Made by a program: the position numbers and the translations under genes. This document shows positions 769 through 20,964 of a stretch of DNA of 32,000 bases, piece after piece (position 1 is the stretch's first letter; every line of letters begins with the position of its first letter). This DNA comes from Candidatus Syntropharchaeum caldarium. Its GTDB lineage: Archaea > Halobacteriota > Syntropharchaeia > Syntropharchaeales > Syntropharchaeaceae. Location of the stretch: the NCBI GenBank assembly GCA_001766815.1, contig LYOS01000002.1:180001-212000 (forward strand). Direction: 5' to 3'. Under the pieces are notes generated by a model, which saw nothing but the letters and a program-made list of their open reading frames with translations, was not told where the DNA came from and made no database searches.

Positions 769-2105
769 CTAAGTGTTATCTCCTGACCGTTTCTCAACAG
801 ATGTACATCCTCGCCAAGCACATATCCAAGCTCTTCTGCAAGCTCAGCGTAAGAACCTGTCATTGAGAGTGAACCATGTGATGGTATTATATGGGTTGGG
901 TTCACCATCTTTATCAACTCCCAGTGATCCTCCCGTGCTGCATGTCCTGAGACATGGATGTTGCTGTAAATCCTTGCACCCTTCATTTTCAGTTTTGTCT
1001 CCAGTGCATACCTGTTAGCCGCGTTGAGTGGTGTGGGAATTACCGCAGCTGAAAATATAATTTTATCTCCTTTTTCCACCTCGTATGCTGTATCTCCGTC
1101 GCCTATTCGTGATAGAATCGCCCCTGGCTCACCCTGGTGTCCAGTTACGATCGGCAGGAACTTTTCCTTCCCTTCGATCATGATCTGCTTTAAGGTTTTG
1201 TCAATCTGTCTGCGATCTGATATTACGCTCAATTCATCTGTGAATTTGAGATATCCCATTTTTTTTGCAACCTCTGTGTATCTACCCATCGAACGTCCAA
1301 GAAGTACAGGTTTACGCCCCGCCTTTTTACTTGCCTCTATCACTGATGATATCCGCGCAATATGAGAGGAGAAGGTTGTAACAATCATACCTGCTTCAGC
1401 ATCACCTATTCCTGTCACAACATCCAGTACAAGATCCTTTGCAACTGTCTCCGAAGGAGTTTTACCATTAACATCCACGCGGGTGGACTCAACGATCATC
1501 GCGAGTACACCCTCTTTCCCAAGTCTTCGCAATCTGTTCTCATCAAGAGGATCATCGAGGATTGGGTATCTATCGATCTTAAAATCGTTTGCGTACAGTA
1601 TCGTTCCTTCTGGTGTGTGTAGAGCCGCAAATACGCAGTCGGGGATCGAGTGCTGGACACGGATGAACTCAAGTTCCACCTTATCAGAGATCCTGTAGGT
1701 CTCACCAGCATTTAACCTGATAAGTGTGTTATCAATCCTGAACTTTCGCTCTGATTTGAGTTGCTGGGAGATTAGCTCTGTCGTGAATGGTGTTGCGATT
1801 ATGGGTGCTTTGTAGCGGTGTGCAAGCTTTGAGATCGCCCCAATATGATCTAAATGCCCGTGTGTGCAGATGATCGCAATCACGTTCCCATCGATCTGGT
1901 TCATGATCGTATCATCCGGTATTGCACCCATCTGGATCAGGTCGAGCGAGTGCATCCGTTCTATCTCAACATCTTCGTGGATCTGCACCCGATCGAGCCT
2001 GATGCCCATATCCATTATAATAATTTCTTTACCGACGCGGATGGCAGTCATATTTCTCCCTACCCCGTTATACCCGCCAACCGCTATTATTCCAATATCC
2101 ACCAT
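765..2105 (-). CDS. rnj: Archaeal RNase J (metallo-beta-lactamase / beta-CASP ribonuclease)
   Basis: 446 aa. It carries the HxHxDH motif (CTHGHLDHIGA), has an N-terminus typical of aRNase J (IIAVGGYNGVGRNMTAIRVG) and a late HVSGHA motif. The length matches archaeal RNase J. Confidence 0.85.
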   Translation of the reverse strand: MVDIGIIAVGGYNGVGRNMTAIRVGKEIIIMDMGIRLDRVQIHEDVEIERMHSLDLIQMGAIPDDTIMNQIDGNVIAIICTHGHLDHIGAISKLAHRYKAPIIATPFTTELISQQLKSERKFRIDNTLIRLNAGETYRISDKVELEFIRVQHSIPDCVFAALHTPEGTILYANDFKIDRYPILDDPLDENRLRRLGKEGVLAMIVESTRVDVNGKTPSETVAKDLVLDVVTGIGDAEAGMIVTTFSSHIARISSVIEASKKAGRKPVLLGRSMGRYTEVAKKMGYLKFTDELSVISDRRQIDKTLKQIMIEGKEKFLPIVTGHQGEPGAILSRIGDGDTAYEVEKGDKIIFSAAVIPTPLNAANRYALETKLKMKGARIYSNIHVSGHAAREDHWELIKMVNPTHIIPSHGSLSMTGSYAELAEELGYVLGEDVHLLRNGQEITLR

Positions 2106-2140
2106 TTGAAACTTCCTCTATCTCAGATTATAAAAGTCTT

Positions 2141-3394
2141 TCAGAGATCTTCTGGGTCTGTGATTTTGCCTGCGATCGCACTTGCAGCTACCACAGCAGG
2201 AGAAGCTAAATAGACAAGAGAATCTTTGTGACCCATACGACCCACGAAATTTCTGTTTGTCGAACTGACACAGACCTCGCCTGCATCAAGAACTCCCATG
2301 TACCCTCCAAGACATGCACCACAGGTCGGGCCTGATACAAACGCACCAGCAGATGCAAATATCTCAAGAAGTCCTTCTCTGATTGCCTGAAGATACACCT
2401 GCTGAGTTGCAGGAACGACGATCATCCGAACATTGCGTTTCACCTTTCTTCCCTTCACAATCGCTGCTGCAATTCTCAGATCCTCGATCCGCCCGTTGGT
2501 GCATGATCCGAGATATGCCTGATCGATCACAACATCCAGATCCCGCGCAGGTGATGTGTTATCTGGGAGAAATGGTGCTGCCACTGTTGATGGGATTTTC
2601 TCGGCTTCATACCTGAATGTATCCTCATACTCTGCGTCCTTATCGGCATACACGGGAGTATAATCTCCCCTGACCCTTCCTTTGAGATATTCAAAGACTT
2701 TATCATCTGGTGGAATGATTCCAGCCTTGGCACCGGCCTCGATCGCCATATTACATATCGTGATTCGATCAGCAAGCGGCAGCGACTCAATCGCAGATCC
2801 ATAAAATTCCTGTGCCCTGTAGAGTGATCCAGATACACCTATATCACCCAGAATGTGCAGTATAATATCTTTTCCAGATACATACCGTCTGAGTTTACCA
2901 TCCACGATGAACCGCTGGGTTTCGGGAACCTTGAACCAGAGTTCGCCTGTTGCCATCACTGCAGCAGCCTCTGTTGACCCGATGCCAGTTGAGAATGCGC
3001 CAAGTGCACCGTATGAGCATGTGTGTGAGTCAGCACCAACAATAAGCCTGCCTGGCGCTGCAAATCCCTCCTCGATCATGACCTGGTGGCAAACCCCGCC
3101 ATCCCCTGGCCAGTAGTAGTTCTCGATCCCGTACTTTATACAGTAATCCTGCAGGGCTTTCGCCTGTTTTGCTGATGCGAGGTCTTTGTTTGGGACGTAG
3201 TGATCTGCGATGGCAACCACGCGTTCTCGTTGCATCGAATGGTTAAGTTCCTCAAATACCTCAAACGCAGGTACGCCTGTGACGTCGTTAACCATTACAT
3301 AATCGATCTTGCACGCAACGATCTCGCCCGCGGCCACCTCCTTCTTACCGTCGATTGCTTTACTACCAAGTATCTTTTCTGCGATTGTCGCCAT
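2141..3394 (-). CDS. Aconitase-family dehydratase large subunit (3-isopropylmalate dehydratase LeuC or homoaconitase HacA)
   Basis: MATIAEKILG..., GADSHT, and an Fe-S cysteine region (LGSCTNGR, GPTCGACLG). The ORF-track start at 3421 is probably too long: ATG at 3394 is preceded by GGAGG about 10 nt upstream. No small subunit lies in the window. I cannot separate LeuC from HacA by eye. Confidence 0.85.
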   Translation of the reverse strand: MATIAEKILGSKAIDGKKEVAAGEIVACKIDYVMVNDVTGVPAFEVFEELNHSMQRERVVAIADHYVPNKDLASAKQAKALQDYCIKYGIENYYWPGDGGVCHQVMIEEGFAAPGRLIVGADSHTCSYGALGAFSTGIGSTEAAAVMATGELWFKVPETQRFIVDGKLRRYVSGKDIILHILGDIGVSGSLYRAQEFYGSAIESLPLADRITICNMAIEAGAKAGIIPPDDKVFEYLKGRVRGDYTPVYADKDAEYEDTFRYEAEKIPSTVAAPFLPDNTSPARDLDVVIDQAYLGSCTNGRIEDLRIAAAIVKGRKVKRNVRMIVVPATQQVYLQAIREGLLEIFASAGAFVSGPTCGACLGGYMGVLDAGEVCVSSTNRNFVGRMGHKDSLVYLASPAVVAASAIAGKITDPEDL

Positions 3395-3417: not shown

Positions 3418-3783
3418 TCAATCACTCAAGTGCTTGTTGAAGATCTTCTCCAGTCGTTTTGCAGAAAAAGGCTTGACGAGGTAGTCCACGGCCCCTGCTT
3501 CCATCGCCTCATTGATGATGTTTGGCATATCAATCGCGGTTATAACAACGATCTTTGCTTCAGGATCGATCGCACGGATGGCTTTTATCGCCTCAACCCC
3601 GTTCATTGATGGCATCACAATATCCATCGTTACAAGGTCTGGTTTGAGTTCTTCATATGCCCTGATGCCCCGCTCTCCCGTGGTCTCGATGAAAACATCA
3701 TAGCGTGTTTCATCTATCATCTCCTTCATCATCGCTGTTATCGGAGCTGCATCATCAACGATCAGAATCTTCTTTTTTTCCAT
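3418..3783 (-). CDS. Single-domain CheY-like response regulator receiver
   Basis: ILIVDD, the phospho-acceptor context LVTMDIVMP, VVITA and LVKPF are all present, so the full receiver residue set is intact. The ORF-track start at 3810 is a GTG overlapping the upstream stop. ATG at 3783 (MEKKKILIVDD) has AGGAGTG 5 nt upstream and is preferred. Confidence 0.9.
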   Translation of the reverse strand: MEKKKILIVDDAAPITAMMKEMIDETRYDVFIETTGERGIRAYEELKPDLVTMDIVMPSMNGVEAIKAIRAIDPEAKIVVITAIDMPNIINEAMEAGAVDYLVKPFSAKRLEKIFNKHLSD

Positions 3784-3806
3784 CCAGACACTCCTGCTGA
3801 CCACCC

Positions 3807-5243
3807 TCACACGATCGGATTGAGTTTCACCTTTGGATAACCAGCCGATACGTCGAGACTCATGTAGTAAAGCTCTGTTCTCGGTTTTATTCCATAGATG
3901 ACGATCGATCCAGAGAGGGCTTCAAGCTTCAGATGCATATCTGAGATATCTGCCAGATACCTGTTGATCTCCTCTGTGCTATCTCTTCCAATAGCGATTG
4001 TGAGCGAACTTGCATCATCAGTACACCTTGCAAGGATACTCATGAGTTTCAGTAACTCATCTTTGTTGGTGTATATGTAATCAAAGACATCAAATCCCAC
4101 TGTGTTGAGAACAGGGTTTCCAGTTTCCTCCTGTAGCCTGTTCCAGAGCTTCCGCCATTTTGCAACATCATCCATCAGATTTCCTGGTTCAATCGAACAT
4201 ATGTATTTCTCTGACTCAAATCCGTCACCATCAGGAAGATATGTAAACTCCACGAACTTCATAAGTTCATTCAATCGATCCTCGAAACCATAGAGGTATG
4301 CGTTTGCCTTCATTCCCTTTGGACTCACTTCACCTGGGGGAAACATTATAACCGGGTTTTCCTGATGTATAAAATTTGCAACCGTCTGCATCAGAACATT
4401 CATGAAGGCATCCTGTGCAACATCAGCCCCAATATCAAGAAATACAAAGCTTCCAAGGGGATAACCACCACCAAGCATATCATCAAGATCCTCTGAACCT
4501 GATGAAAAGTAAGATGGTGTATCCTTTATAGGTTCAAACCGCTTATGCTCTGACGGATATTTAAACTCGAATGGCTTAAGGCTGCTGAAGACTCCTCCTT
4601 CAAGCGAGAAGAGATATGCAGGATGCTCTCGCCTCACGCCTCTGAGTTTATTGATGTTGAGGGTCCTGACCGCCCTACCACCGATTTCCTCTGCCTTCAT
4701 CGTGATCACACTATCAACCAGATAATCAAGTTTATCCTGATATGTGTACTCACTCACGAGGATAAAATCGATACTCGCTTTGCTTGAAATATCGGTGATC
4801 AGCGATTCAAGATCTTCTCTGTTCTCAACCTCCCCGGTCTGTGTCAGTACCGCATCCCAGCTATCAATGACGACCACTGCAACCTCAAACTCGTCGCACA
4901 TGCGATAGATATTGCCAAGGAAGGTTGGACGATCAGAATACTTAAGCGTATTTATGAAATAGTCCATATCCATATTTTCCCGAGTTGAAACTGGTTCAAA
5001 TTCTGATTGCGTGGCATCTATGATATGTTTTGGCGGTATAACCTTGGAGATCCATGGAAAATCAGCGTAGAGTTTGGTATTGTCGACTCTTGTTGAGAGA
5101 TAAATCCCATTATTTGTCCCGTAAAGTTCTTTCAGGAGGGTTAATGCGAAGATTGTCTTGCCTGTCCCTGGCTCCCCTTTAACAAGCATTGTATGTCCCA
5201 TTTCGCCTTTGAAGAACTCTATGATCTCATCAGGTATTGCCAT
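3807..5243 (-). CDS. Two-domain KaiC/GvpD-like RecA-superfamily ATPase (N-domain intact, C-domain P-loop degenerate)
   Basis: 478 aa. The N-terminal half has Walker A (GEPGTGKT) and a Walker B-like motif (VAVVVIDSWD). The C-terminal half repeats the KaiC-type entry motif (LDDMLGGGYPLGSFVFLDIG) but has ADVAQDAF where the P-loop should be. Confidence 0.7.
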   Translation of the reverse strand: MAIPDEIIEFFKGEMGHTMLVKGEPGTGKTIFALTLLKELYGTNNGIYLSTRVDNTKLYADFPWISKVIPPKHIIDATQSEFEPVSTRENMDMDYFINTLKYSDRPTFLGNIYRMCDEFEVAVVVIDSWDAVLTQTGEVENREDLESLITDISSKASIDFILVSEYTYQDKLDYLVDSVITMKAEEIGGRAVRTLNINKLRGVRREHPAYLFSLEGGVFSSLKPFEFKYPSEHKRFEPIKDTPSYFSSGSEDLDDMLGGGYPLGSFVFLDIGADVAQDAFMNVLMQTVANFIHQENPVIMFPPGEVSPKGMKANAYLYGFEDRLNELMKFVEFTYLPDGDGFESEKYICSIEPGNLMDDVAKWRKLWNRLQEETGNPVLNTVGFDVFDYIYTNKDELLKLMSILARCTDDASSLTIAIGRDSTEEINRYLADISDMHLKLEALSGSIVIYGIKPRTELYYMSLDVSAGYPKVKLNPIV

Positions 5244-5902: not shown

Positions 5903-7084
5903 ATGTTATCCATTGCAATTGCTGGAAAGCCAAACGCTGGTAAGTCAACATTCTTCAAGGCGGCAACCCTTGCAGATGTTCAAATCGCAAACTACCCGTT
6001 TACAACCGTGGATGCGAACAGAGGTGTGGGTTATGTCAGGGTTACATGTCCCTGTATTGCGCTTGAAGTACGGTGCGGGAGGTGTGTTGAGGGCGTTCGA
6101 TACATACCTGTTGAGCTTATCGATGTTGCAGGACTTGTACCAGATGCCCACAAAGGAAGGGGGCTTGGAAATGAGTTTCTGGATAATCTGAGGCAGGCGC
6201 AGGCGATAATTCATGTGGTGGATGCCTCTGGCGGTACAGATATTGAGGGAAACCCGGTCAGTGTGGGTGATCACGATCCGCTTGAGGATGTTGAGTTTCT
6301 GGAACATGAGATCACGATGTGGATCTCCGGCATTCTTAAACGAAACTGGAGCAGACTATCGAAGAAAGCATCTGCAGAGGGTGTGAAGATCGAGGATCTA
6401 ATCTTAAACCAGCTTCGGGGGGTTGGCGTTGATGAGTTCGAGGTTAAACGAGCGCTGCATAACGCAAAGGTCGATCTCGATACCCCCGCGCAATGGAGCG
6501 ATGACGAACTTGTAACTGTCGCAGACTGGATACGCAGGGAGAGTAAGCCACTTCTGATCGTTGCAAACAAGATGGATATCGCACCTTCTGAAAATATCAA
6601 ACGCCTCTTAGCGCTTGATCGTGATGTTGTACCAGCATCAGCCGAGGCAGAGCTTGCACTGCGATTGGCATCAAAAAACAATCTTGTATCATATCTCTCT
6701 GGAGATTCAGACTTTTCAATCGTGTCAGACGAGCTTAAACCACCTCAAAGAAAAGCGCTTGAAAAGATACAGGTCTTGCTTAAAAATCATGGATCAACGG
6801 GAGTGCAGGAAGCAATCAATCGTGTTGTATTTGAGCTTCTGGATTATATCACGGTCTTTCCAGTCGAAGATGAGCACAAGCTCACAGACTCAAACGGTAG
6901 GGTTCTTCCTGATGCTTTCCTCATGAAGAAGGGGAGCACGCCGCACGATCTTGCATATATGGTGCACACCGATATTGGAAAGGGTTTTCTCTATGCCGTG
7001 GATGCAAAATCCGGGATGCGACTTGCTGAGAAGCATGAACTTGAGGATGGAGACATTGTAAAGATCGTTGCTGTTAAGAGGTGA
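5903..7084 (+). CDS. Obg-family P-loop GTPase (YchF/OLA1-DRG type) with C-terminal TGS domain
   Basis: MLSIAIAGKPNAGKSTFFKAAT (G1), NYPFTT (G2), DVAGLV (G3), ANKMD (G4) and a TGS-like C-terminus (GSTPHDLAYMVHTDIGKGF...GDIVKIV). The ORF-track start at 5750 overlaps the divergent GNAT gene. ATG at 5903 begins directly at the P-loop. Confidence 0.85.
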   Translation: MLSIAIAGKPNAGKSTFFKAATLADVQIANYPFTTVDANRGVGYVRVTCPCIALEVRCGRCVEGVRYIPVELIDVAGLVPDAHKGRGLGNEFLDNLRQAQAIIHVVDASGGTDIEGNPVSVGDHDPLEDVEFLEHEITMWISGILKRNWSRLSKKASAEGVKIEDLILNQLRGVGVDEFEVKRALHNAKVDLDTPAQWSDDELVTVADWIRRESKPLLIVANKMDIAPSENIKRLLALDRDVVPASAEAELALRLASKNNLVSYLSGDSDFSIVSDELKPPQRKALEKIQVLLKNHGSTGVQEAINRVVFELLDYITVFPVEDEHKLTDSNGRVLPDAFLMKKGSTPHDLAYMVHTDIGKGFLYAVDAKSGMRLAEKHELEDGDIVKIVAVKR

Positions 7085-7808
7085 TGGTGATCAATTGGTT
7101 ACGATCAGGGTTATTCTTCTTGAACCGCTCTATGGAGGTAATATAGGGTCTGTGGCACGGGTTATGATGAACTTTGGTTGCAGGGATCTTGTGCTTGTAA
7201 ATCCACCCCCTATAAATGACGAGACGCGGGCTTTTGCATCCAGCGCAATTGAATTGCTCGAATCCGCCACTATATGCGAGACTTTTGAGGAAGCAATCGT
7301 GGATGCAGACGTTATTGTTGGAACCACATCAAAGATGGGTGAGACCGAGAACAGACATGTGAGGATGCCTGCTTATTCACCAAAAGCGCTTAAAGCAAAA
7401 TTTGACGGAAAAAAAGGAAATGTATCACTCGTATTCGGTAGAGAAGACAGAGGTCTATCATCAGATGAGCTTTCAAGATGTGATATCATCGCTGTGATAC
7501 CGACAAGTGCCAGTTATCCTGTTATGAACATATCACACGCTGTTGCGATCTTTCTCTATGAGTTACAGGATCTGAGCCCGGGGGAATATCCGCTTGCAGA
7601 CCGGTATAACAAAGATCTACTCTATGAACATATCCATGAGTTTCTCCATAAGATCCCATATCCACCACACAAACTGGAGAAGACGGCATTGATGATAAAA
7701 AGAATTCTTGGAAGAGCAGAGCTTACAGGGAGAGAGGTTCAGACGCTGAGAGGGGTTCTAAAAAGGACTGAAAGAGCGATAAAGGAGGGAAGAGAATCGG
7801 AAAGATAA
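7068..7808 (+). CDS. SpoU/TrmH-family RNA 2'-O-methyltransferase (aTrmJ-like)
   Basis: IRVILLEPLYGGNIGSVARVMMNFG...LVLVNP, VFGREDRGLS and MNISHAVAIFLYEL are the three SPOUT motifs. The start is uncertain: the track uses TTG at 7068, which overlaps the upstream gene. In-frame TTG at 7095, lying 10 nt after GAGGTGAT, is an alternative. Confidence 0.8.
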   Translation: MLLRGDGDQLVTIRVILLEPLYGGNIGSVARVMMNFGCRDLVLVNPPPINDETRAFASSAIELLESATICETFEEAIVDADVIVGTTSKMGETENRHVRMPAYSPKALKAKFDGKKGNVSLVFGREDRGLSSDELSRCDIIAVIPTSASYPVMNISHAVAIFLYELQDLSPGEYPLADRYNKDLLYEHIHEFLHKIPYPPHKLEKTALMIKRILGRAELTGREVQTLRGVLKRTERAIKEGRESER

Positions 7809-7810
7809 AG

Positions 7811-8446
7811 ATGGTTGCATACGACCTCGAGGGCGTACTGGTCGATGAGGAGAGTATCTGGGTCAAGCTTAGTCGTGCTTTTGGGACCGATGGGCTCGAT
7901 CCAGCATTGAAAGACGATTATCTCGCAGGTAAAATTTCGTATAAAGAATGGTCTGATCACGTTGTATCCCGCTGGAAGGGGAAAGAGGTCAGCGTGATCG
8001 ATGAGTTTGTGAGGAGGAGCCAACTCATGCCCGGGGCAAAAGAGACAACCTCAATCCTGAGAGAAGCAGGTATAAAGCAGGTTATTATCACAAATTCAAT
8101 CTCACACCTTGCTTATGATGTTGGAGAAAGACTTGGGATAGAACCTCATTTTATAAGATCAAACATACTTGCCACAGAGAATGGTAAGCTCACGGGCGAG
8201 ATTGAGTTTTATCTTGCATGGGAGGATAAACTCAGATTACTCAATTACTTTGCATCGATGATGGGGCTATCGCTGGATGAAGTTGCTGCGGTGGGGGACG
8301 GGATAAACGATATCCAGATTCTTGAGGCAGCAGGGCTTGGTATCGCCTTCAATCCAGTGGAATCAAGAGTAATAGAGGCTTCTGATCTTGTCATCCGTGA
8401 GAAAAACCTGCGGGAGATTGTTGGATGGATTATTGGCAGGACGTGA
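7811..8446 (+). CDS. HAD-superfamily hydrolase, subfamily IB (phosphoserine phosphatase-like)
   Basis: 211 aa. Motif I is AYDLEGVLVD, motif II is ITNS, and motif IV is GDGINDIQILEAAGLGIAFNP, typical of SerB-like enzymes. Confidence 0.75.
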   Translation: MVAYDLEGVLVDEESIWVKLSRAFGTDGLDPALKDDYLAGKISYKEWSDHVVSRWKGKEVSVIDEFVRRSQLMPGAKETTSILREAGIKQVIITNSISHLAYDVGERLGIEPHFIRSNILATENGKLTGEIEFYLAWEDKLRLLNYFASMMGLSLDEVAAVGDGINDIQILEAAGLGIAFNPVESRVIEASDLVIREKNLREIVGWIIGRT

Positions 8447-8448
8447 AC

Positions 8449-9264
8449 TTATATCCGCATGAGTTTATCTCTGACACGCGTGAAGAAACTCTCACCAGAT
8501 TTTACAAAGAGCGCCGATCGATCGGATTTCACGATCTCGATCTCATCGCCCTTGCTTACAGATCGATTTATCTCGCCATCTACAACAAGCATCGCATCCT
8601 TTTCAGGTTCGAGAAGCTCAATTCTGATCCTGCTTGAGCCTGCAACAACCGCGGGGCGAGCCGAGAGTTTGAACGGCGCGAGTGGGACAATTAACGTGCA
8701 ATCCATCCCTGGATCTACTATCGGACCTCCTGCACTCATCGAGTATGCAGTTGAACCAGTTGGTGTGGAGAAGACAACACCATCTGCACGCAGACGCTCA
8801 AAACCCTCTCCATCTATCAGAATTTCAAAATGTAGCATCTTGGCAGGTCTCAACGTGAGAACAACGATCTCGTTCATTGCAGTAGCTTCTTTCTTCTTGT
8901 TCACGATCACATCAAGTCTGGAGCGTTCTTCAACCTCAAAATTATCGATGATCTCACAGATATTTGCAAGTGCCTCATCCGGAGTCAGTGCTGCAAGAAA
9001 GCCGAGTGCACCCATCCCAATGCCAAGAACTGGTATCGGATCGTCCATTGCGGCAATCGTTCGTAGTATGGTTCCATCCCCACCGATACAGAGTATTACA
9101 TCCACATCCATATCACTGATCGGTGCCCCATCTATACCAAGTTTTAATGCAGTCCCAGGATCTGCGATAACATCGAGATGATCTCTGATCCGCTCAAAGA
9201 TATTTTCTGCCATCTGTGAGAGATCGTCTCTCGCAACAATACCAACACGACGTGCCCTGATCAC
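8449..9264 (-). CDS. nadK: NAD kinase
   Basis: 271 aa with the GGDGTILR motif, NEIVV, and the TPTGSTAYSMSAGGPIV signature. Confidence 0.9.
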   Translation of the reverse strand: MIRARRVGIVARDDLSQMAENIFERIRDHLDVIADPGTALKLGIDGAPISDMDVDVILCIGGDGTILRTIAAMDDPIPVLGIGMGALGFLAALTPDEALANICEIIDNFEVEERSRLDVIVNKKKEATAMNEIVVLTLRPAKMLHFEILIDGEGFERLRADGVVFSTPTGSTAYSMSAGGPIVDPGMDCTLIVPLAPFKLSARPAVVAGSSRIRIELLEPEKDAMLVVDGEINRSVSKGDEIEIVKSDRSALFVKSGESFFTRVRDKLMRI

Positions 9265-9965
9265 GCTATGTCCCTCGATGTATCGATCTCGATCCCATGA
9301 GGTCCGATCTTGAACTTGATGAACTCAGGAAGGGGTGCCATCCCACGCACCTTTGTGATCGAGAAGCGATTATTTATTCTGTGACCCACCCGCTCAAGGT
9401 CCACATTGAATATCACATCCGCAACATTCATGATATAATTCTCAATTTGCTTATCATGGCTGTCATTCAGGACATACAGGAATCCAAGTCCGCCGCATCC
9501 TTTTACAAGCTCGTATAATCGGTTAACAAGATTTCTCAATCTGAATTGATCGATCTTCAGATCCATGAAGAACGAGAAAGTATCTACGATGATATTGAAT
9601 TCATTCTCACCTTCCACCTCTTTTATGGTTTCAAGTTCGACCTCGATCCAATCCATGATCTTTTCATCACTGTCTTCGGTATATCCACCATTGAGATTAT
9701 ATTTGCTGTAGACATCTAAAAATATGACTGAATCCATATTCTGCGTGCATCCGATCGTAGCGATATTCTGCGCTATATACTCGTGCCTTCGGGTGGTTGT
9801 GATATAGTACGTCTTACGGGAGGATGTGAACTGGTACAGAAATATCTCTGCCATTGAGTCGGGATCACCTCTAAAATAGATGAGCGAGCCAGCCGGGAAT
9901 CCGCCTCGCATGATCGTATCAAGCATATATATCCCTGTTGGCTTGAGCATTCCTGCATCCCTCAT
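9261..9965 (-). CDS. KaiC/RecA-superfamily domain protein with degenerate Walker A (predicted non-catalytic)
   Basis: 234 aa. It has the KaiC-type entry (GIYMLDTIMRGGFPAGSLIYFRG) followed by DPDSMAEI where GxxGxGK[ST] is expected, and a Walker-B-like IIVDTFS. Its stop overlaps the nadK start by 4 bp. Confidence 0.6.
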   Translation of the reverse strand: MRDAGMLKPTGIYMLDTIMRGGFPAGSLIYFRGDPDSMAEIFLYQFTSSRKTYYITTTRRHEYIAQNIATIGCTQNMDSVIFLDVYSKYNLNGGYTEDSDEKIMDWIEVELETIKEVEGENEFNIIVDTFSFFMDLKIDQFRLRNLVNRLYELVKGCGGLGFLYVLNDSHDKQIENYIMNVADVIFNVDLERVGHRINNRFSITKVRGMAPLPEFIKFKIGPHGIEIDTSRDIA

Positions 9966-11680: not shown

Positions 11681-11702
11681 TCTTACTTATTTCGTTGAGA
11701 TT

Positions 11703-11715
11703 CTATAAAAAATAG
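11703..11715 (-). promoter_or_regulatory. Oligo-T / TATA element (ctattttttatag on minus strand): candidate terminator of the PqqD-like unit and hisG promoter
   Basis: A T6 run lies about 30 nt after the PqqD-like stop and about 29 nt before the hisG ATG. Confidence 0.35.
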
Positions 11716-11743
11716 ATAGATTACGTATTCACACCAGGTGGCT

Positions 11744-12034
11744 TCACATCTCAATAATCTTCATTTCAGACATTTTTTTGAGTATCTGGTTGACATCCTT
11801 CTCTATGACAGAACGCTGGGCATCATAGTTGGCATAGATCTCATCCACGATCTCATCCACTGTGTGTTTACCATCACAGAGCCTGACGATGATACTTGCG
11901 GTTTCATTTGCCTCAAATACCTCGTTTGTTTTGTAATCAACAAGCATCATTCCTGCTTCACTCGTCCGGGTGATATATGCTGATTTTTCCTCAAGTTCAA
12001 TAGAATCTTTTAGTTTTGGGTTACCCACTGCCAC
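11744..12034 (-). CDS. Stand-alone PqqD-family protein (RiPP recognition element-like)
   Basis: About 95 aa. ...EVFEANETASIIVRLCDGKHTVDEIVDEIYANYDAQRSVIEKDVNQILKKMSEMKIIE matches the PqqD pattern (Ln.t...iw.l.dG..tv.eI...l...Y.v......DV..fl..L...gli). The start is GTG at 12034 or 12028, directly after GGAGGTG. Confidence 0.8.
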   Translation of the reverse strand: MAVGNPKLKDSIELEEKSAYITRTSEAGMMLVDYKTNEVFEANETASIIVRLCDGKHTVDEIVDEIYANYDAQRSVIEKDVNQILKKMSEMKIIEM

Positions 12035-12040
12035 ACCTCC

Positions 12041-12151
12041 TCACATCAGGCTTGTTCCGTCAATGCCTGCTCCATCCATGATCGAACCTAAACTTTTCCA
12101 CTCTTCAATCTTCGGTGGAACATAAGGTTTCTTTTTAACTTCCTCGGACAT
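12041..12151 (-). CDS. Unannotated 36-codon ORF, candidate precursor or partner peptide of the PqqD-like protein
   Basis: My translation of the reverse strand gives MSEEVKKKPYVPPKIEEWKSLGSIMDGAGIDGTSLM*. ATG at 12151 has AGGAGTG 6 nt upstream. Its TGA stop lies inside the GGAGGTG RBS of the PqqD-like gene. It is below the 60-aa cut-off of the ORF track. Confidence 0.45.
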   Translation of the reverse strand: MSEEVKKKPYVPPKIEEWKSLGSIMDGAGIDGTSLM

Positions 12152-12200
12152 GTCAGTCACTCCTACATCTCATTAGTTCAGCATTACATGATTCGATCTC

Positions 12201-12215
12201 CTTAAATAATTTTGG
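12201..12215. promoter_or_regulatory. TATA-like element in the divergent spacer between dinB and the small-ORF/PqqD unit
   Basis: cttaaataattttgg is centred about 29 nt upstream of the dinB ATG. Read on the other strand, it would place a TSS about 30 nt upstream of the small-ORF ATG, leaving a 5' UTR that contains AGGAGTG. Confidence 0.35.
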
Positions 12216-12236: not shown

Positions 12237-13355
12237 ATGCAGCGCAAAGAGCGGGATAGGATCATACTCCACATCGATATGGACAGTTTCTATGCCGCAG
12301 TGGAGATGCAGGATACCCCTTCTCTTAAAGGTCTTCCTGTTGTTGTTGGTGCAGATCCCAGAATGGGGAAGGGAAGGGGAGTTGTCAGCACGTGCTCATA
12401 CGAAGCGAGGAGTTATGGCGTACGCTCTGGTATGCCGATTTCGCAGGCATTCAAACTGCTCTCAGGCACAGACGCGGTATTCTTACCGGTGAACATGCAG
12501 CGCTACAGAGAGGTTTCTGAAAAGATCATGGGAATTCTCAGGAGTTATGCCGGGAGATTTCAACAGGTGAGTATCGACGAGGCGTTTCTTGATATTACAG
12601 ACCATGTTAACGACTGGAATGATGTGGAAAACTTTGCACTTGAGATTAAAAAAGATGTGCTTGCGCAAACTGGACTCACCTGCTCCATCGGGATTGCAGC
12701 GAACAAAGCTGTTTCAAAGATTGCCTCCAGCATCGGAAAACCAGATGGGCTTACGATTATCACGCCAGGTGATGTTAAAAAGTTCCTATCACCGCTACCT
12801 ATCTCAGAGATATCTGGTATCGGAAGAAAGACCGAAGAACGACTGAAAAAGATCGGGATCCACACAATCGCAGAACTCGCAGATGCCGATATTGTCCAGA
12901 TCATATCCGAGTTTGGCAGGATCGGCCAGAGGATACATCTTCTTGCAGAGGGAATCGATGATGAAGAGGTACGTGAGCGGGGTGAGCCAAAATCCATCGG
13001 GCATGAAGATACATTTGAGATTGATACAGATGATCCCGATCTGATCAAGAGCGTGATAGGTGATATCGCCGAGCGAATCCATAAAAGGCTTCTTGTGGAG
13101 AACTGTAACTTCAGGACGATTACGTTGAAGGTGCGGTTTGAAGACTTTGTGACACACACTCGATCACGAACTCTTCGTAGACACACCCAGGACCAGAGGG
13201 TGATCGAGGCGATCTCCAGGGAGATGATGGATGAATTTCTATCCAATGAGAAGAGGCTGAGGTTGGTCGGAGTGCGAGTATCACACCTTGAGAAGGTCGA
13301 TCTGGGGCAGCGAAGGTTGGATGAATATTTCTCAGCGGCTGATAGATCAATCTGA
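12237..13355 (+). CDS. dinB: Y-family DNA polymerase IV (Dpo4/DinB)
   Basis: 372 aa. ILHIDMDSFYAAVE, the SIDEAFLD catalytic motif, and GIGRKTEERLKKIGI (HhH) are present. Confidence 0.9.
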   Translation: MQRKERDRIILHIDMDSFYAAVEMQDTPSLKGLPVVVGADPRMGKGRGVVSTCSYEARSYGVRSGMPISQAFKLLSGTDAVFLPVNMQRYREVSEKIMGILRSYAGRFQQVSIDEAFLDITDHVNDWNDVENFALEIKKDVLAQTGLTCSIGIAANKAVSKIASSIGKPDGLTIITPGDVKKFLSPLPISEISGIGRKTEERLKKIGIHTIAELADADIVQIISEFGRIGQRIHLLAEGIDDEEVRERGEPKSIGHEDTFEIDTDDPDLIKSVIGDIAERIHKRLLVENCNFRTITLKVRFEDFVTHTRSRTLRRHTQDQRVIEAISREMMDEFLSNEKRLRLVGVRVSHLEKVDLGQRRLDEYFSAADRSI

Positions 13356-16997: not shown

Positions 16998-17711
16998 GTG
17001 GTCATGATCACAGAGGTCTCACTCGTACTTCCTGCATACAATGAGGCGGAGCGCATCGTCAGGTGTGTCGAACGCGCAGTCGAAACTCTCGAAAAAATAA
17101 CACCCTCGTTTGAGGTTATCATTGCAGAAGATGGTAGCACCGATGAAACCCCCTCTCTTGCAGCAGAGCTTGCAGATACCTATGCCCAGGTCAGGCACCT
17201 CCATAGCGATACGCGTCTTGGGAGGGCTGGTGGCATGGTGAGGGCTTTCAGGGTAGCAGAGGGAGAGATACTTGCCTTTATGGATGTCGATCTTGCAACA
17301 GATCTCAGTCATCTACAGGAACTTATTCAGGCGATACGAGATGGCTTTGATGTGGCAACAGGATCAAGATTGATGAAGGAGAGTGATGTTACGCGCTCTT
17401 TCAAGCGCACCATATTGAGCAGGGGATATAACTTCCTTGTGCGACTCCTGCTCAAATCAAAGATCAGAGATCACCAGTGCGGATTCAAGGCGTTTAGACG
17501 TGATATGCTATTTGAGATCATCGATGAACTTGAGGATGAGCACTGGTTCTGGGATACCGAGCTTCTCGTTCTTGCCCAGAAAAAAGGCTATCGTATCTAT
17601 GAGTTTCCGGTGAAATGGGTAGACGGTGAGATGACAAAGGTCAATCTATCAAGTGATACTTTCGAGATGGGGTCAAAGATCTTTGCCATGAGGCGGAGGA
17701 TTAAGAGGTGA
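16998..17711 (+). CDS. Family 2 glycosyltransferase (dolichyl-phosphate hexose synthase-like)
   Basis: 237 aa. SLVLPAYNEAERI, AEDGSTDET, FMDVDL (DxD) and GFKAFRR are present. Confidence 0.85.
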   Translation: MVMITEVSLVLPAYNEAERIVRCVERAVETLEKITPSFEVIIAEDGSTDETPSLAAELADTYAQVRHLHSDTRLGRAGGMVRAFRVAEGEILAFMDVDLATDLSHLQELIQAIRDGFDVATGSRLMKESDVTRSFKRTILSRGYNFLVRLLLKSKIRDHQCGFKAFRRDMLFEIIDELEDEHWFWDTELLVLAQKKGYRIYEFPVKWVDGEMTKVNLSSDTFEMGSKIFAMRRRIKR

Positions 17712-17713
17712 AG

Positions 17714-18571
17714 ATGAAGAAGCCGCGGCAGATTGCGATATATGGTAAAGGTGGAATAGGTAAATCCACAATCTCTTCGAACCTTGCAGCAGCCTGTGCC
17801 ATGCGTGGACTGAAGGTTATGCTGCTTGGGTGTGATCCAAAAGCAGACTGCACTCGCAATCTGAGGGGAGACCTGGAGATACCAACGGTGCTTGATGTTC
17901 TGCGAGAGCGCGAGAAGACCGGTGGAGAGATTGATGTTGATGAGATCGTTTATCGTGGGTACAACGGTGTTCTCTGTGTCGAGGCAGGAGGTCCTGAGCC
18001 TGCGGTTGGGTGTGCTGGAAGGGGGATTATTGTTGCGGTTGAACTCCTGAAGCGGCTTGGGGTCTATGATCAGGATCTTGATCTTATCATCTATGATGTA
18101 CTCGGCGATGTTGTATGCGGGGGTTTTGGGATGCCACTCAGGCAGGGACTCGCAGACCACGTCTTTGTTGTCACATCAGCAGACTATCTCGCGATATATG
18201 CCGCAAATAATATCTGTAAAGGTATTCAGCGTCATGCAGGGAGGAATGGATCGCCGCTTAGCGGCATTATATACAACGTGCGAGGTGTGATCGATGACCC
18301 TGGACTTGTCAAAGAGTTTGCAGAGCGCGTTGGATCATCTGTGGTGGGAGCGATCCCCTTTGATCCACTGATCACAGAGAGCGAACTCTATGGTAGAACT
18401 GTCATCGAGTCAGATCCAGATTCTATGATTGCAGGCCGCTTCAGAGAACTTGCAGAGACAATTCTTACAATTGAAAAAGGTATAACGCCACACGCACTAT
18501 CACAGGAAGATCTGAGTGATTTTGCACAGAAAATACGGGAGATGGCAGGTAAGCGAAAGCCTACGAGGTGA
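17714..18571 (+). CDS. cfbC: NifH/BchL-family ATPase, probable Ni-sirohydrochlorin a,c-diamide reductive cyclase component CfbC
   Basis: IAIYGKGGIGKSTISSNLAAA (P-loop), with both 4Fe-4S cysteine ligands (VGCAGRGI, DVVCGGFGMP). The ORF-track GTG at 17708 overlaps the GT2 stop. ATG at 17714 follows GAGGTGA. The assignment as CfbC rather than another Nif-like group is inferred from the methanogen context. Confidence 0.75.
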   Translation: MKKPRQIAIYGKGGIGKSTISSNLAAACAMRGLKVMLLGCDPKADCTRNLRGDLEIPTVLDVLREREKTGGEIDVDEIVYRGYNGVLCVEAGGPEPAVGCAGRGIIVAVELLKRLGVYDQDLDLIIYDVLGDVVCGGFGMPLRQGLADHVFVVTSADYLAIYAANNICKGIQRHAGRNGSPLSGIIYNVRGVIDDPGLVKEFAERVGSSVVGAIPFDPLITESELYGRTVIESDPDSMIAGRFRELAETILTIEKGITPHALSQEDLSDFAQKIREMAGKRKPTR

Positions 18572-20056: not shown

Positions 20057-20296
20057 TCAGGTTTCTCCCTTCAACCACTTCTTTATCGTATCGACATCCA
20101 CGATCCTTCCAGATGCTTTCACTTCTCCATCTATAACAAGTGCGGGGGTTGTCATCACACCATACTCGATTATCTTTCCAATATCACTGACTTTTTCGAT
20201 CTCCGCCTGGATATCTAATTCCTCAACTGCCTTCCTCACATTCTCTTCCATTTTATTACACTTTGCGCACCCTGTGCCAAGTACCTCGATTCTCAT
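20057..20296 (-). CDS. Small thioredoxin-fold redox-active disulfide protein (MTH895/TM0996 type)
   Basis: 79 aa. MRIEVLGTGCAKCNKMEENV carries the CxxC, followed by ...TTPALVIDGEV. The start overlaps the upstream stop as ATGA. Confidence 0.85.
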   Translation of the reverse strand: MRIEVLGTGCAKCNKMEENVRKAVEELDIQAEIEKVSDIGKIIEYGVMTTPALVIDGEVKASGRIVDVDTIKKWLKGET

Positions 20297-20964
20297 CCAA
20301 TCATCTCCTTTTCTTCAGGATCTGCTATGAACTTTCTCCATCTGCTAACCATCTTTGGTTTTTCAACCTCCCAGGGCTTCTCGATCTTCATGCTGATCTT
20401 CACGCAGATCGGATCCTCTGCATATGCACCGGGATCGTAGAGCGTGTAATTCTCAAACTGGCTTGGTTCTTCCTGATAACATGCCCTTACAGCATCTGTC
20501 ACTTTATCTGCATCAAGACAATCAATGAGATCTATAATCCTGATCTGTCTTCTGAACTGCTCGATTGCCTCTTCTGGAATGTTTGGTAGATACGGCGTTA
20601 ACGCGGTTGAACCGATTATCCACCCCCTCTCATCAACACCGTTTTCAACCAGTTTTATGAGTGTATCTCCTGGGAGATGTCCCCATGCTTCCCTTCCACA
20701 GATGATTAGGTACCTTATATTCGGATTTGCAACGATGTTACATATAAGCTTCTCAATCCCAATATTCTCGGTCTGAAGCATACCTGAAAGGGCAGCCCCA
20801 GCATCAACTGCTGCCATCACGAGGTCCTCAAGTTCCATCGGGATTGCAAAGTCAAATGTATCGAGGATTACACATACCGCAACAGGCGAGTAATCATTCC
20901 CTCTCACGTATCTTCCATCTTCTGGCGGGTATTCTGATGGTGGTTTTACCTTATAGATTTCCAT
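20293..20964 (-). CDS. Soluble MtrA-family corrinoid-binding protein (no C-terminal membrane anchor)
   Basis: 223 aa. LQTENIGIEKLICNIVANPNIRYLIICGREAWGHLPGD...NGVD...IPEEAIEQFRRQI closely parallels the MtrA core, including the His of the xxGH motif used as the cobamide ligand. It lacks the hydrophobic tail of MtrA. Confidence 0.8.
   Translation of the reverse strand: MEIYKVKPPSEYPPEDGRYVRGNDYSPVAVCVILDTFDFAIPMELEDLVMAAVDAGAALSGMLQTENIGIEKLICNIVANPNIRYLIICGREAWGHLPGDTLIKLVENGVDERGWIIGSTALTPYLPNIPEEAIEQFRRQIRIIDLIDCLDADKVTDAVRACYQEEPSQFENYTLYDPGAYAEDPICVKISMKIEKPWEVEKPKMVSRWRKFIADPEEKEMIG

Follow-up and report, generated by a model that had tools for sequence, protein, structure and literature searches.

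RiPP recognition elements (RREs) are used as class-independent handles for mining genomes for peptides that are ribosomally synthesised and modified after translation (RiPPs), on the assumption that the tailoring enzymes are encoded next to them. What, then, is the role of an RRE gene that follows a very small open reading frame (ORF) and has no such enzyme beside it? The question is raised by a locus of Candidatus Syntropharchaeum caldarium (S. caldarius below; assembly GCA_001766815.1, contig LYOS01000002.1, positions 180,001 to 212,000). The whole stretch of 32,000 nt that was analysed is called the window here, and window coordinates count from its first letter. A preliminary description of this DNA had proposed that a hidden 36-codon ORF and a PqqD-like gene form an orphan precursor/recognition pair, either served by an enzyme in trans or belonging to a module of an undescribed kind. 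Our analysis partly supports that interpretation. We find the two genes paired one-to-one in two archaeal phyla, and consider it fairly probable (about 0.6) that the locus is an autonomous, translationally coupled module of a small protein and an RRE chaperone, with a partner acting in trans.

A small-protein gene coupled to an RRE gene

The first gene of the pair lies on the minus strand at 12151..12041 and encodes, in 36 codons, the 36-residue peptide MSEEVKKKPYVPPKIEEWKSLGSIMDGAGIDGTSLM. A Shine-Dalgarno-like AGGAGTG (12158..12164, minus strand) stands 6 nt 5′ of its ATG at 12151, and its TGA stop (12043..12041) directly abuts GGAGGTG (12040..12034, minus strand), the Shine-Dalgarno-like element of the second gene. 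As read from these letters, the contact between stop codon and GGAGGTG makes the two genes translationally coupled. The second gene (11744..12028, minus strand) encodes a stand-alone PqqD-family RRE (Pfam PF05402) of 94 residues if translated from GTG 12028, or 96 if translated from GTG 12034. Sequence and Pfam thus confirm the small ORF, its Shine-Dalgarno element and the PqqD-like gene where they had been placed. Both GTG codons had been offered as starts; that at 12028 (MGNPKLK...) is most likely the right one, because GGAGG then lies 7 nt upstream and because the orthologue in a related genome (L016) has an ATG at the equivalent MGNPKLK, whereas the GTG at 12034 overlaps the Shine-Dalgarno element itself.

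The same signals recur in relatives. A purine-rich element of the GGAG/GAGG type lies about 5-9 nt from the start of the small ORF in 11 of 12 close-clade orthologues, L004 having no obvious one, and the peptide stop is 6-24 nt from the RRE start in all 12 of these loci. Elsewhere the gap is 9-14 nt (for L103 see below) or, in L101/L102, an overlap by the called RRE start, which is probably over-extended. The two window ORFs lie in the same frame, separated by TGA-GGA-GGT. A fusion of 135 residues through read-through of the TGA was considered and rejected, given a 1-nt indel in L001 and other frames and gaps in other clades; the shared frame is probably incidental.

The RRE protein and its predicted fold

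Against the Pfam PqqD model PF05402 the window protein scores 60.7 bits (cut-off 23.4; E=1.7e-16) over profile positions 2-67 of 67, and an identical protein has been deposited as ‘coenzyme PQQ biosynthesis protein D’, PQQ being pyrroloquinoline quinone. The NCBIfam equivalogs (lasso PqqD, PQQ PqqD, GeoRSP, Scm and others) all score it below their cut-offs: 45.7 versus 70 for NF033530, 21.5 versus 80 for NF033536, 43.8 versus 46 for TIGR03859 and 31.4 versus 101 for NF002535.

An AlphaFold2 model (predicted local distance difference test score 82, predicted template modelling (TM) score 0.72) has the β-β-β-α-α-α order of a winged-helix fold. The best Foldseek match of this model is the lasso protein TbiB1 with its leader (5V1V; TM scores 0.78/0.85, root-mean-square deviation 1.8 Å), followed by TfuB1 with its leader (6JX3; 0.74/0.83) and PqqD (5SXY; 0.74/0.75). 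A sequence-profile search of the PDB also places TfuB1 and TbiB1 best, giving the same order of lasso B1 proteins and then PqqD. By its model, the window protein is superposable on solved RREs over three strands and three helices, and the earlier view of a coupled, stand-alone RRE is borne out by a predicted fold whose closest matches are lasso B1 proteins with bound leaders. Proteins of the subfamily are acidic (median isoelectric point 4.86, range 4.2-5.7, net charge about -6), and for this reason DNA binding by the winged helix is unlikely.

Pairing of the two genes across genomes

Searching 1.84 billion representative proteins with phmmer gave 334 PqqD-like matches, seven of them below 1e-10, and among 5.8 billion clusters a profile search found 24 members at E<=2e-23, with the next match at 7e-8. 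A peptide homology search, which used a 42-codon open frame as query, found two relatives, and a genome scan with narrower RRE alignments returned three loci. In every relative found by the RRE protein or the peptide search, the small ORF stands directly 5′ of the RRE gene. A small ORF whose amino-acid sequence was not conserved in relatives retaining the PqqD-like gene had been set beforehand as grounds for refuting the pair; the sequence is conserved in all relatives.

Two hidden Markov models (HMMs), one built for the RRE subfamily and one for the peptide, were then run on six-frame segments of the window and of 105 fetched loci (19,184 segments). The RRE model scores at least 111 bits in 32 loci and falls to 61 bits after them. 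The peptide model matches exactly the same 32 loci, always immediately upstream and on the same strand, and nowhere else among the 19,184 segments. Peptides from which the model was built match it by construction; what is informative is the lack of matches elsewhere and the one-to-one relation. As a negative control from the same metagenome scan, 74 generic PqqD loci were inspected for the peptide motif, and none has it. The pairing of peptide and RRE subfamily is therefore strict and one-to-one. The 32 loci comprise 19 distinct peptides in seven clades (A-G), from a sample biased to hydrocarbon-seep metagenomes in which most contigs are short.

Conservation and selection on the small peptide

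The small ORF has been called independently as a gene of 36 residues in L003, and a JGI metagenome protein (P0004), likewise an independent 36-residue call, is 94% identical to the window peptide. Orthologues come from other Syntrophoarchaeum lineages (L001, ...VSDEVEKKPYIPPKIEEWKSLGSIMDGAGIDGASLM; also L003, L004, L016 and L020). Clade B comes from metagenome-assembled genomes (MAGs) of Ca. Syntropharchaeia (L005-L008, MADEKKCNEEGKEYVPPKIDEWKSLDSVMESASGL), and a further group from ‘Halobacteriota archaeon’ MAGs and seep metagenomes (L009-L011, L017, L018, L022-L024; e.g. MAAENKEKKKREYCTPKVAEWQSMSKVMEGAGGL). More distant peptides are those of L012/L099/L101 (...KKQWIKPDIKEKGSMGDKLSLDKLDVGL), L013/L104 (MKKKYIKPEIIEMGKLDLELLSSGDLSGAALPV) and L014 (...AEYIKPTIMEAKPRTIFGGAGGL), and L103 of clade D also carries an orthologous small ORF.

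By the Nei-Gojobori method, the ratio of non-synonymous to synonymous substitution rates (dN/dS) of the peptide is 0.05-0.14 in six informative pairs, whose synonymous sites are near saturation, and 0.33 in one pair of low divergence (3 synonymous and 5 non-synonymous changes). The dN of the peptide (0.05, 0.14 and 0.16) is lower than that of the RRE gene in the same genome pairs (0.09, 0.22 and 0.24). The small ORF is a real gene under purifying selection, as had been suspected.

These data bear directly on one way to explain the locus, namely as the remnant of a decaying lasso or PQQ cluster, or as a spurious small ORF beside a PqqD gene that serves PQQ synthesis. The depositors’ annotation would fit such a reading, as would the fact that, among NCBIfam models, the PqqD families of lasso and PQQ systems come closest. 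It is effectively refuted by the conservation and selection data: strong purifying selection acts on the two genes in both phyla, and they occur together without exception. Additionally, the protein stays under the TIGR03859 cut-off, the peptide has no PqqA model match, and neither pqqB/C/E nor lasso B2/C is found in the window or in any family locus.

Across the alignment of the 19 distinct peptides only P13 and E17 are invariant besides the start Met; position 10 is Tyr or Trp, and position 15 is Ile or Val. The family-wide motif is thus [YW]xxPx[IV]xE (Y10-E17 in the window peptide, with Y10-V-P-P13-K-I15), preceded by a Lys-rich patch. Its resemblance to the YxxPx[IL] leader motif, already remarked on in the preliminary description, turns out to be the sole peptide feature conserved family-wide. 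Family members are about 30-42 residues long and usually end ...M[DE]GAxGL, within a fuller consensus ...EWxS[LM]xx[IV]M[DE]GAxGL. The window peptide has the conserved ...SIMDGAG and then a six-residue extension specific to the caldarius lineage (tail ...SIMDGAGIDGTSLM), so that S. caldarius and its closest relatives end ...GAGIDGTSLM (window 12041-12060), about six residues longer and with a terminal Met. The peptide of L004 ends ...EMGMNGVGGM, and nearly all other members end ...GAxGL (L016, L020, L005 and L009 were compared). The tail is conserved and not hypervariable. The family has no conserved Cys or His. Pfam gave no match for the window peptide, NCBIfam none for any of the 19 peptides, and the PDB none for the peptide profile. 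The streptide-like K-x-x-x-W (K14...W18) that had been pointed out is present in clades A-D only, with Arg for Lys in one clade C member (L023), and both residues are lost in clades E-G.

An RRE fold together with a leader-like motif could also mean a conventional RiPP, whether lasso-like, streptide-like with a Lys-Trp cross-link or of another radical S-adenosylmethionine (rSAM) type, whose enzymes and exporter lie elsewhere in the genome. The KxxxW of clades A-D would fit, and the residue 17 past the Tyr is a conserved Gly after [IV]M[DE], which gives a lasso-like leader/core register. We nevertheless judge this explanation improbable. RiPP clusters are normally compact, and no tailoring enzyme or exporter adjoins the pair in 19 distinct loci of seven clades. 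The ‘core’ would have five residues (GAxGL) in most members, with Met at position -2 and no Asp/Glu acceptor at positions 7-9, the Lys-Trp site varies as described, and the family has no conserved Cys or His. No peptide matches an NCBIfam precursor family, and the whole peptide is conserved across phyla, unlike antimicrobial RiPPs. By analogy, conservation of this kind resembles that of a cofactor precursor (PqqA, MftA) more than that of an antimicrobial RiPP, and the label ‘RiPP’ for the peptide is itself an analogy.

Gene neighbourhoods and hosts

The pair travels as a unit through unrelated gene contexts. Within clade A it lies between dinB and hisG in the window and L003, between a kinase-fold gene and hisG, without dinB, in L001, between a gene for a LarC-type nickel-insertion protein and two PurP genes in L016, and beside genes for FtsZ, TrpC and adenine deaminase in L020. 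In clade B (L005-L008) it stands between a divergently transcribed gene for an ADP-forming CoA ligase and one for a DUF460 protein, and in clade D (L103) between genes for TPR proteins and a pyridoxal-phosphate enzyme. In clade E (L012, L099-L102) it follows a divergent gene for a V4R-domain regulator and precedes variable genes, and in clade F (L013, L104) it adjoins the gene of a double-ABC ATPase. Genes for rSAM, SPASM, YcaO, asparagine-synthase-like and transglutaminase-like proteins are absent from the annotated flanks (up to 10 kb per side, several loci). The earlier statement that no tailoring enzyme is encoded locally therefore holds in the annotated flanks of all loci and not only in the window. 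Because the flanking genes differ completely between clades and no tailoring gene occurs in the annotated flanks, we regard the module as autonomous.

In L016 (Ca. Syntrophoarchaeum sp. 12019_3) the LarC-type gene (8627-9853, plus strand; PF01969, E=3e-123) shares the strand of the small ORF and stops about 40 nt short of it. This neighbour was seen beside the pair in one lineage only, and could matter given that F430, the cofactor of methyl-coenzyme M reductase (MCR), contains nickel.

Beyond anything in the preliminary description, the pair recurs in other lineages beside mmp6, mmp5 and mmp15, beside component A2 and Mmp3, and beside divergent McrBA. In clade C (L009-L011, L017, L018, L022) mcrA and mcrB run away from a rightward unit of pair, mmp6, mmp5, mmp15, mmp15 and the gene of an iron-sulphur (Fe-S) protein. 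This arrangement is present in four distinct contigs of two sub-lineages (L009, L017, L018 and L022); the gap from the RRE gene to mmp6 is 3-15 nt, and the mmp genes score above the NCBIfam cut-offs where they are full length. By sequence, McrA and McrB of this clade are divergent, because they fall below the NCBIfam equivalog cut-offs (McrA 537 versus 768, McrB 460 versus 516) and the best PDB match is at 479 bits. Assignment of this McrA to the ethyl-coenzyme M reductase type was rejected, since 7B1S is no nearer to it than canonical MCRs are. In clade G (L014/L015) Mmp3 is encoded on the same contig (333 bits versus a cut-off of 234), and component A2 (TIGR03269, 650 bits versus 517) is encoded right after the RRE gene. 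For the double-ABC protein of clade F, which is cut by the contig end, the best NCBIfam model is A2, below cut-off.

Several details of the clade C loci may be recorded here. In L017 the divergent mcrB and then mcrA occupy 6679-9751 (minus strand) with a gap of 16 nt, as they are also arranged in L009 and L018. In these three loci there is no mcrG, mcrC or mcrD between or beside the two genes, and the next gene encodes a proteasome beta subunit. The Fe-S protein at the end of the mmp6-mmp5-mmp15-mmp15 operon is RDH/QueG-like in L017 (13683-14522, plus strand) and L009. L018 also encodes a CobB/CobQ-like amidotransferase (1864-3216, minus strand) on the mcr side of the pair, about 5.6 kb away, which could, as a guess of ours, be the F430-pathway enzyme CfbB.

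Members with a source name come from Ca. S. caldarius, S. butanivorans, S. sp. GoM_oil, Ca. Syntrophoarchaeum sp. 12019_3, a Ca. Syntropharchaeia archaeon and a Halobacteriota archaeon. The host of clade E is assigned through neighbour-protein clusters: three neighbouring proteins share clusters, at 90% identity or more, with proteins from Ca. Helarchaeota. All named hosts are accordingly Syntropharchaeia, ‘Halobacteriota’ MAGs or Helarchaeota, in two phyla (clades D and F are not among the named), and no named member is attributed to a cultured methanogen. The window host, called a ‘methanogen-type archaeon’ earlier, is described in the literature as a butane oxidiser and not a methanogen. 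For clade G, both A2 and Mmp3 belong to clusters of at least 90% identity that include proteins of Ca. Syntropharchaeales and Syntrophoarchaeum sp., and for this reason Syntropharchaeales may carry two divergent pairs. Alkyl-coenzyme M reductases (ACRs) of Helarchaeota fall on one branch with Methanoliparia's divergent MCR homologues, and these have features in common with the enzymes of Syntrophoarchaeum (review PMC9118554). The host range is consistent with lineages having ACRs for multi-carbon alkanes, as judged from group-level literature.

One possible hypothesis, a more specific version of the favoured reading, is that the pair is an accessory of MCR/ACR activation or maturation. The RRE would hand the peptide, as a small subunit or as a substrate such as the precursor of a peptide-derived redox factor, to the machinery of Mmp5, Mmp6, Mmp15 and A2 in archaea whose reductases are divergent (alkyl-coenzyme M) enzymes. 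Put more broadly, the pair would be a lineage-specific part of ACR maturation and reductive activation in archaea that oxidise multi-carbon alkanes (Syntropharchaeia, Methanoliparia-like Halobacteriota and Helarchaeota), and would have passed from phylum to phylum along with the ACR gene set. The clade C operon beside McrBA, the clade G order of RRE gene and A2 with Mmp3 on the contig, the ambiguous ABC protein of clade F and the named hosts, which belong to groups linked through related ACRs and include no cultured methanogen, all favour it. Independent adjacency in two of seven clades would have a chance of about 1e-3, a rough figure that assumes about 8 genes in about 2,500. On the other side, the pair has no mmp, A2 or mcr gene as a neighbour in the window itself, nor has it one in clades A, B, D and E. 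The hypothesis depends on two clear arrangements and an ambiguous one, from sampling biased as noted above. No role of an RRE in MCR activation is known, and the published complex, as summarised in bioRxiv 10.64898/2026.03.18.712670, has no such peptide. Because the pair lies elsewhere in the window and in four clades, we keep this hypothesis as tentative and on balance unlikely, in both its narrower and its broader form.

The clade E neighbourhood bears on a different explanation, in which the PqqD-like winged helix is a transcription factor or another non-chaperone protein modulated by the small protein, perhaps in response to redox state. The V4R-domain protein of this Helarchaeota clade, of about 219 residues (L012 1878-2537, L099 9035-9691 and L101 9080-9739, all minus strand), is always encoded divergently from the pair, with downstream genes that vary, and is a candidate for a dedicated regulator of the pair on the basis of this arrangement. 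Its V4R-domain match is weak, scoring 24.9 bits against the C-terminal region of MsvR's model. RREs are winged-helix domains, which would also agree with a regulatory role. Set against this, the subfamily is uniformly acidic, its best structural matches are peptide-bound RREs and not DNA-binding winged helix-turn-helix proteins, and the V4R neighbour occurs in one clade only, making a regulatory pair very improbable.

Proposed mode of action

In the reading that we favour, of a coupled small protein and RRE chaperone with a partner in trans, co-translation of the two genes would mean that the peptide is made together with its dedicated RRE. The acidic RRE would capture the peptide, and the segment [YW]xxPx[IV]xE (Y10-E17) would add as an extra β-strand to the groove of β3 and α3, as the leaders do in TbiB1 and TfuB1. 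Such binding has indirect support from the strict one-to-one co-occurrence and from the leader-like motif. The conserved C-terminal tail (GAGIDGTSLM in S. caldarius) would be left free, and the complex would present it to a partner encoded elsewhere in the genome, with modification of the peptide as one conceivable outcome. The partner would not be a classical neighbouring RiPP enzyme; genomic links point to the redox and ATP-dependent machinery that activates MCR/ACR. If the pair did serve ACR maturation, its peptide would have one of two roles, as precursor to a peptide-derived cofactor that is yet to be discovered or as a small subunit that the RRE loads onto Mmp5/6/15-A2.

Some observations weigh against this reading. 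The conserved region spans the whole peptide, unlike the conserved leader and variable core of a RiPP precursor, and because of this the RRE may keep the peptide bound as a stable subunit and not deliver it. In L103 a gap of 131 nt separates the peptide from the RRE gene. In clade G (L014 4758-5099, plus strand) the motif is C-terminal, at the end of an open frame that may reach 113 codons and whose N-terminal part is rich in Lys/Glu and resembles a coiled coil. The possible starts give 37 to 113 residues; the ‘peptide’ of this clade may be the tail of a larger protein.

Surroundings of the pair in the window

A TATA-box-like, AT-rich element, ATTATTTAA, lies about 51 nt upstream of the peptide ATG (12202..12210, minus strand) and is a candidate archaeal promoter of the pair. 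About 85 nt 5′ of the small ORF, including this element, are kept in L001, which has no dinB upstream, and in L003. Between the RRE stop and the hisG start is a spacer of 63 nt (11681..11743, minus strand) with a T-run and a TATA-like stretch, ctatctattttttataga, probably the end of the two-gene unit and a promoter of hisG’s own. A scan for sigma-70 promoters and intrinsic terminators was run, and is uninformative for an archaeon. The loci that have hisG as the downstream gene are the window, L001/L002 and L003/L019. Other genes follow the pair in L016, L020 and all remaining clades, and downstream of L004 is unannotated. As the downstream neighbour differs in other clades, hisG is not counted as part of the module.

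By Pfam, the window holds housekeeping and C1-metabolism genes: RNase J, an aconitase-family protein, KaiC/GvpD-like proteins, NAD kinase, Memo, HisG, DinB, an amino-acid-kinase-fold protein, MgtC, NifH-like and MtrA-like proteins, acyl-CoA synthetase, arginyl-tRNA synthetase, aRF1, a TGT-family protein and others. No rSAM, YcaO, lasso B2/C or ABC/peptide-exporter gene was found in it (Pfam, non-overlapping ORFs of at least 110 residues). Rfam gave no match at or near the locus even at E<=1 (local 700 nt), nor were there tRNAs.

The dinB gene (IMS-family polymerase, 12237-13355, plus strand) lies between the amino-acid-kinase-fold gene and the pair, as it does in L003. The 84%-identical relative L001 has no dinB in the corresponding region (1631-2583), and there the kinase-fold gene abuts the region 5′ of the pair, so dinB is a presence/absence polymorphism within the genus. 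A NifH/frxC-family protein (17708-18571, plus strand; E=2.5e-100) is encoded among unrelated genes, and a stand-alone MtrA-like protein at 20293-20964 (minus strand), both 6-9 kb from the pair. NifH homologues are reported to be universal in MCR-encoding archaea (bioRxiv 10.64898/2026.03.18.712670). Two KaiC/RecA-like ATPases are encoded on the minus strand (3418-5243 and 9261-9965), one of which has GvpD P-loop and GvpD_bR2 domains and precedes a receiver-domain protein, while DUF7125 is carried by the second. The host is not known to make gas vesicles.

Significance

The mining of genomes through RREs assumes a neighbouring enzyme, and this peptide/RRE family consistently breaks the assumption, as a conserved pair that stands alone in unrelated contexts in two archaeal phyla. 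Where functionally coherent neighbours are present, they are genes for methyl/alkyl-coenzyme M reductase activation. What is new is a known recognition fold and a leader-type motif in a setting that has no enzyme, crosses phyla and is linked to energy metabolism. If the tentative role in ACR maturation were true, this would be the first RRE outside natural-product and cofactor clusters and inside core energy metabolism, and the pair would bear on the question of how ACRs are matured and activated and how alkane oxidisers differ here from methanogens. Should the link to MCR not hold, what is left is an orphan RRE module with an enzyme in trans, or an RRE that serves as the stable partner of a small protein. 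In either case, a small synthesisable peptide and a putative binding protein of 94 residues are a directly testable entry point.

Comparison with known systems

The peptide/RRE pair is previously undescribed. A recent survey of RREs regards discrete PF05402 proteins as belonging for the most part to lasso or PQQ systems (PMC12710340), and our literature search found no paper that links PqqD with Syntrophoarchaeum or with methanogenesis markers, in agreement with the earlier suggestion of an undescribed module. Membership in the lasso, PQQ, streptide and mycofactocin systems was tested for each, and each fails on defining features.

The lasso B1/A systems (TbiB1/TbiA, 5V1V; TfuB1/TfuA, 6JX3) are alike in having a discrete RRE of about 90 residues encoded beside the peptide, and provide the best sequence-profile and structural matches of the window RRE. 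The aromatic-x-x-P-x-[IV] of the window family, after its basic patch, stands in the register of YxxPxL, which B1 RREs recognise at leader positions -17 to -12 (PMC10368454). Seventeen residues past the Tyr, the peptides of clades A-D have the Gly that is conserved in ...[IV]-M-[DE]-G-A-x-G-L. For a lasso precursor we looked for Thr (rarely Ile/Val) at -2, a core of about 15-25 residues, Gly/Ala/Ser/Cys at +1 and Asp/Glu at 7-9. The family has Gly at +1, but Met and not Thr/Ile/Val at -2. The tail past the junction has 5 residues (GAxGL) in most members and 10 in the window, and positions 7-9 have no Asp/Glu, the window peptide having an Asp at position 5. The NCBIfam lasso PqqD models stay below cut-off (45.7 and 21.5 as given above), and no B2 protease, C cyclase or exporter is among the annotated genes of any family locus. 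Furthermore, the whole peptide and not the leader alone is conserved across phyla, and the hosts are archaea.

Like PqqD and PqqA, the pair joins a stand-alone chaperone of PqqD fold to a very small peptide conserved from end to end, as for a cofactor precursor, and the RRE model resembles 5SXY (TM score 0.74). It differs in scoring below the TIGR03859 cut-off (43.8 < 46), in having no pqqB/C/E nearby and no PqqA model match, and in the lack of an E-x3-Y.

In the mycofactocin system, too, an RRE chaperone (MftB) serves a short precursor (MftA) that has a conserved Gly-rich extreme C-terminus as its functional part, and the product is an intracellular redox cofactor and not an antibiotic. MftA ends ...IDGxCGVY, and the family studied here ends ...[IV]M[DE]GAxGL, its C-terminal residue being Leu or Met and not Tyr. 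The RRE has no MftB model match at E<=1, the peptide matches no MftA model, and there is no adjacent rSAM-SPASM gene for MftC.

Streptide (StrA with the rSAM enzyme StrB/SuiB) shares the K14...W18 spacing in clades A-D. The RRE is discrete here and fused to the rSAM enzyme in SuiB, and the SuiB structures 5V1S/5V1T are weak fold matches. No rSAM gene is nearby, and the two residues are absent in clades E-G, with Arg for Lys in one clade C member.

The remaining comparison is with genes of energy metabolism. Mmp5, Mmp6, Mmp15, Mmp3 and A2 are described in a preprint as an essential ‘MCR activation operon’ (bioRxiv 10.64898/2026.03.18.712670); that source describes neither an RRE nor a small peptide in the operon or in the solved activation complex. 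The window and four other clades differ from this system (A2, Mmp3/5/6/7/15/17) in having the pair elsewhere. The likeness lies in two arrangements: in clade C the pair heads mmp6-mmp5-mmp15-mmp15 beside McrBA, and in clade G it directly precedes A2, with Mmp3 nearby.

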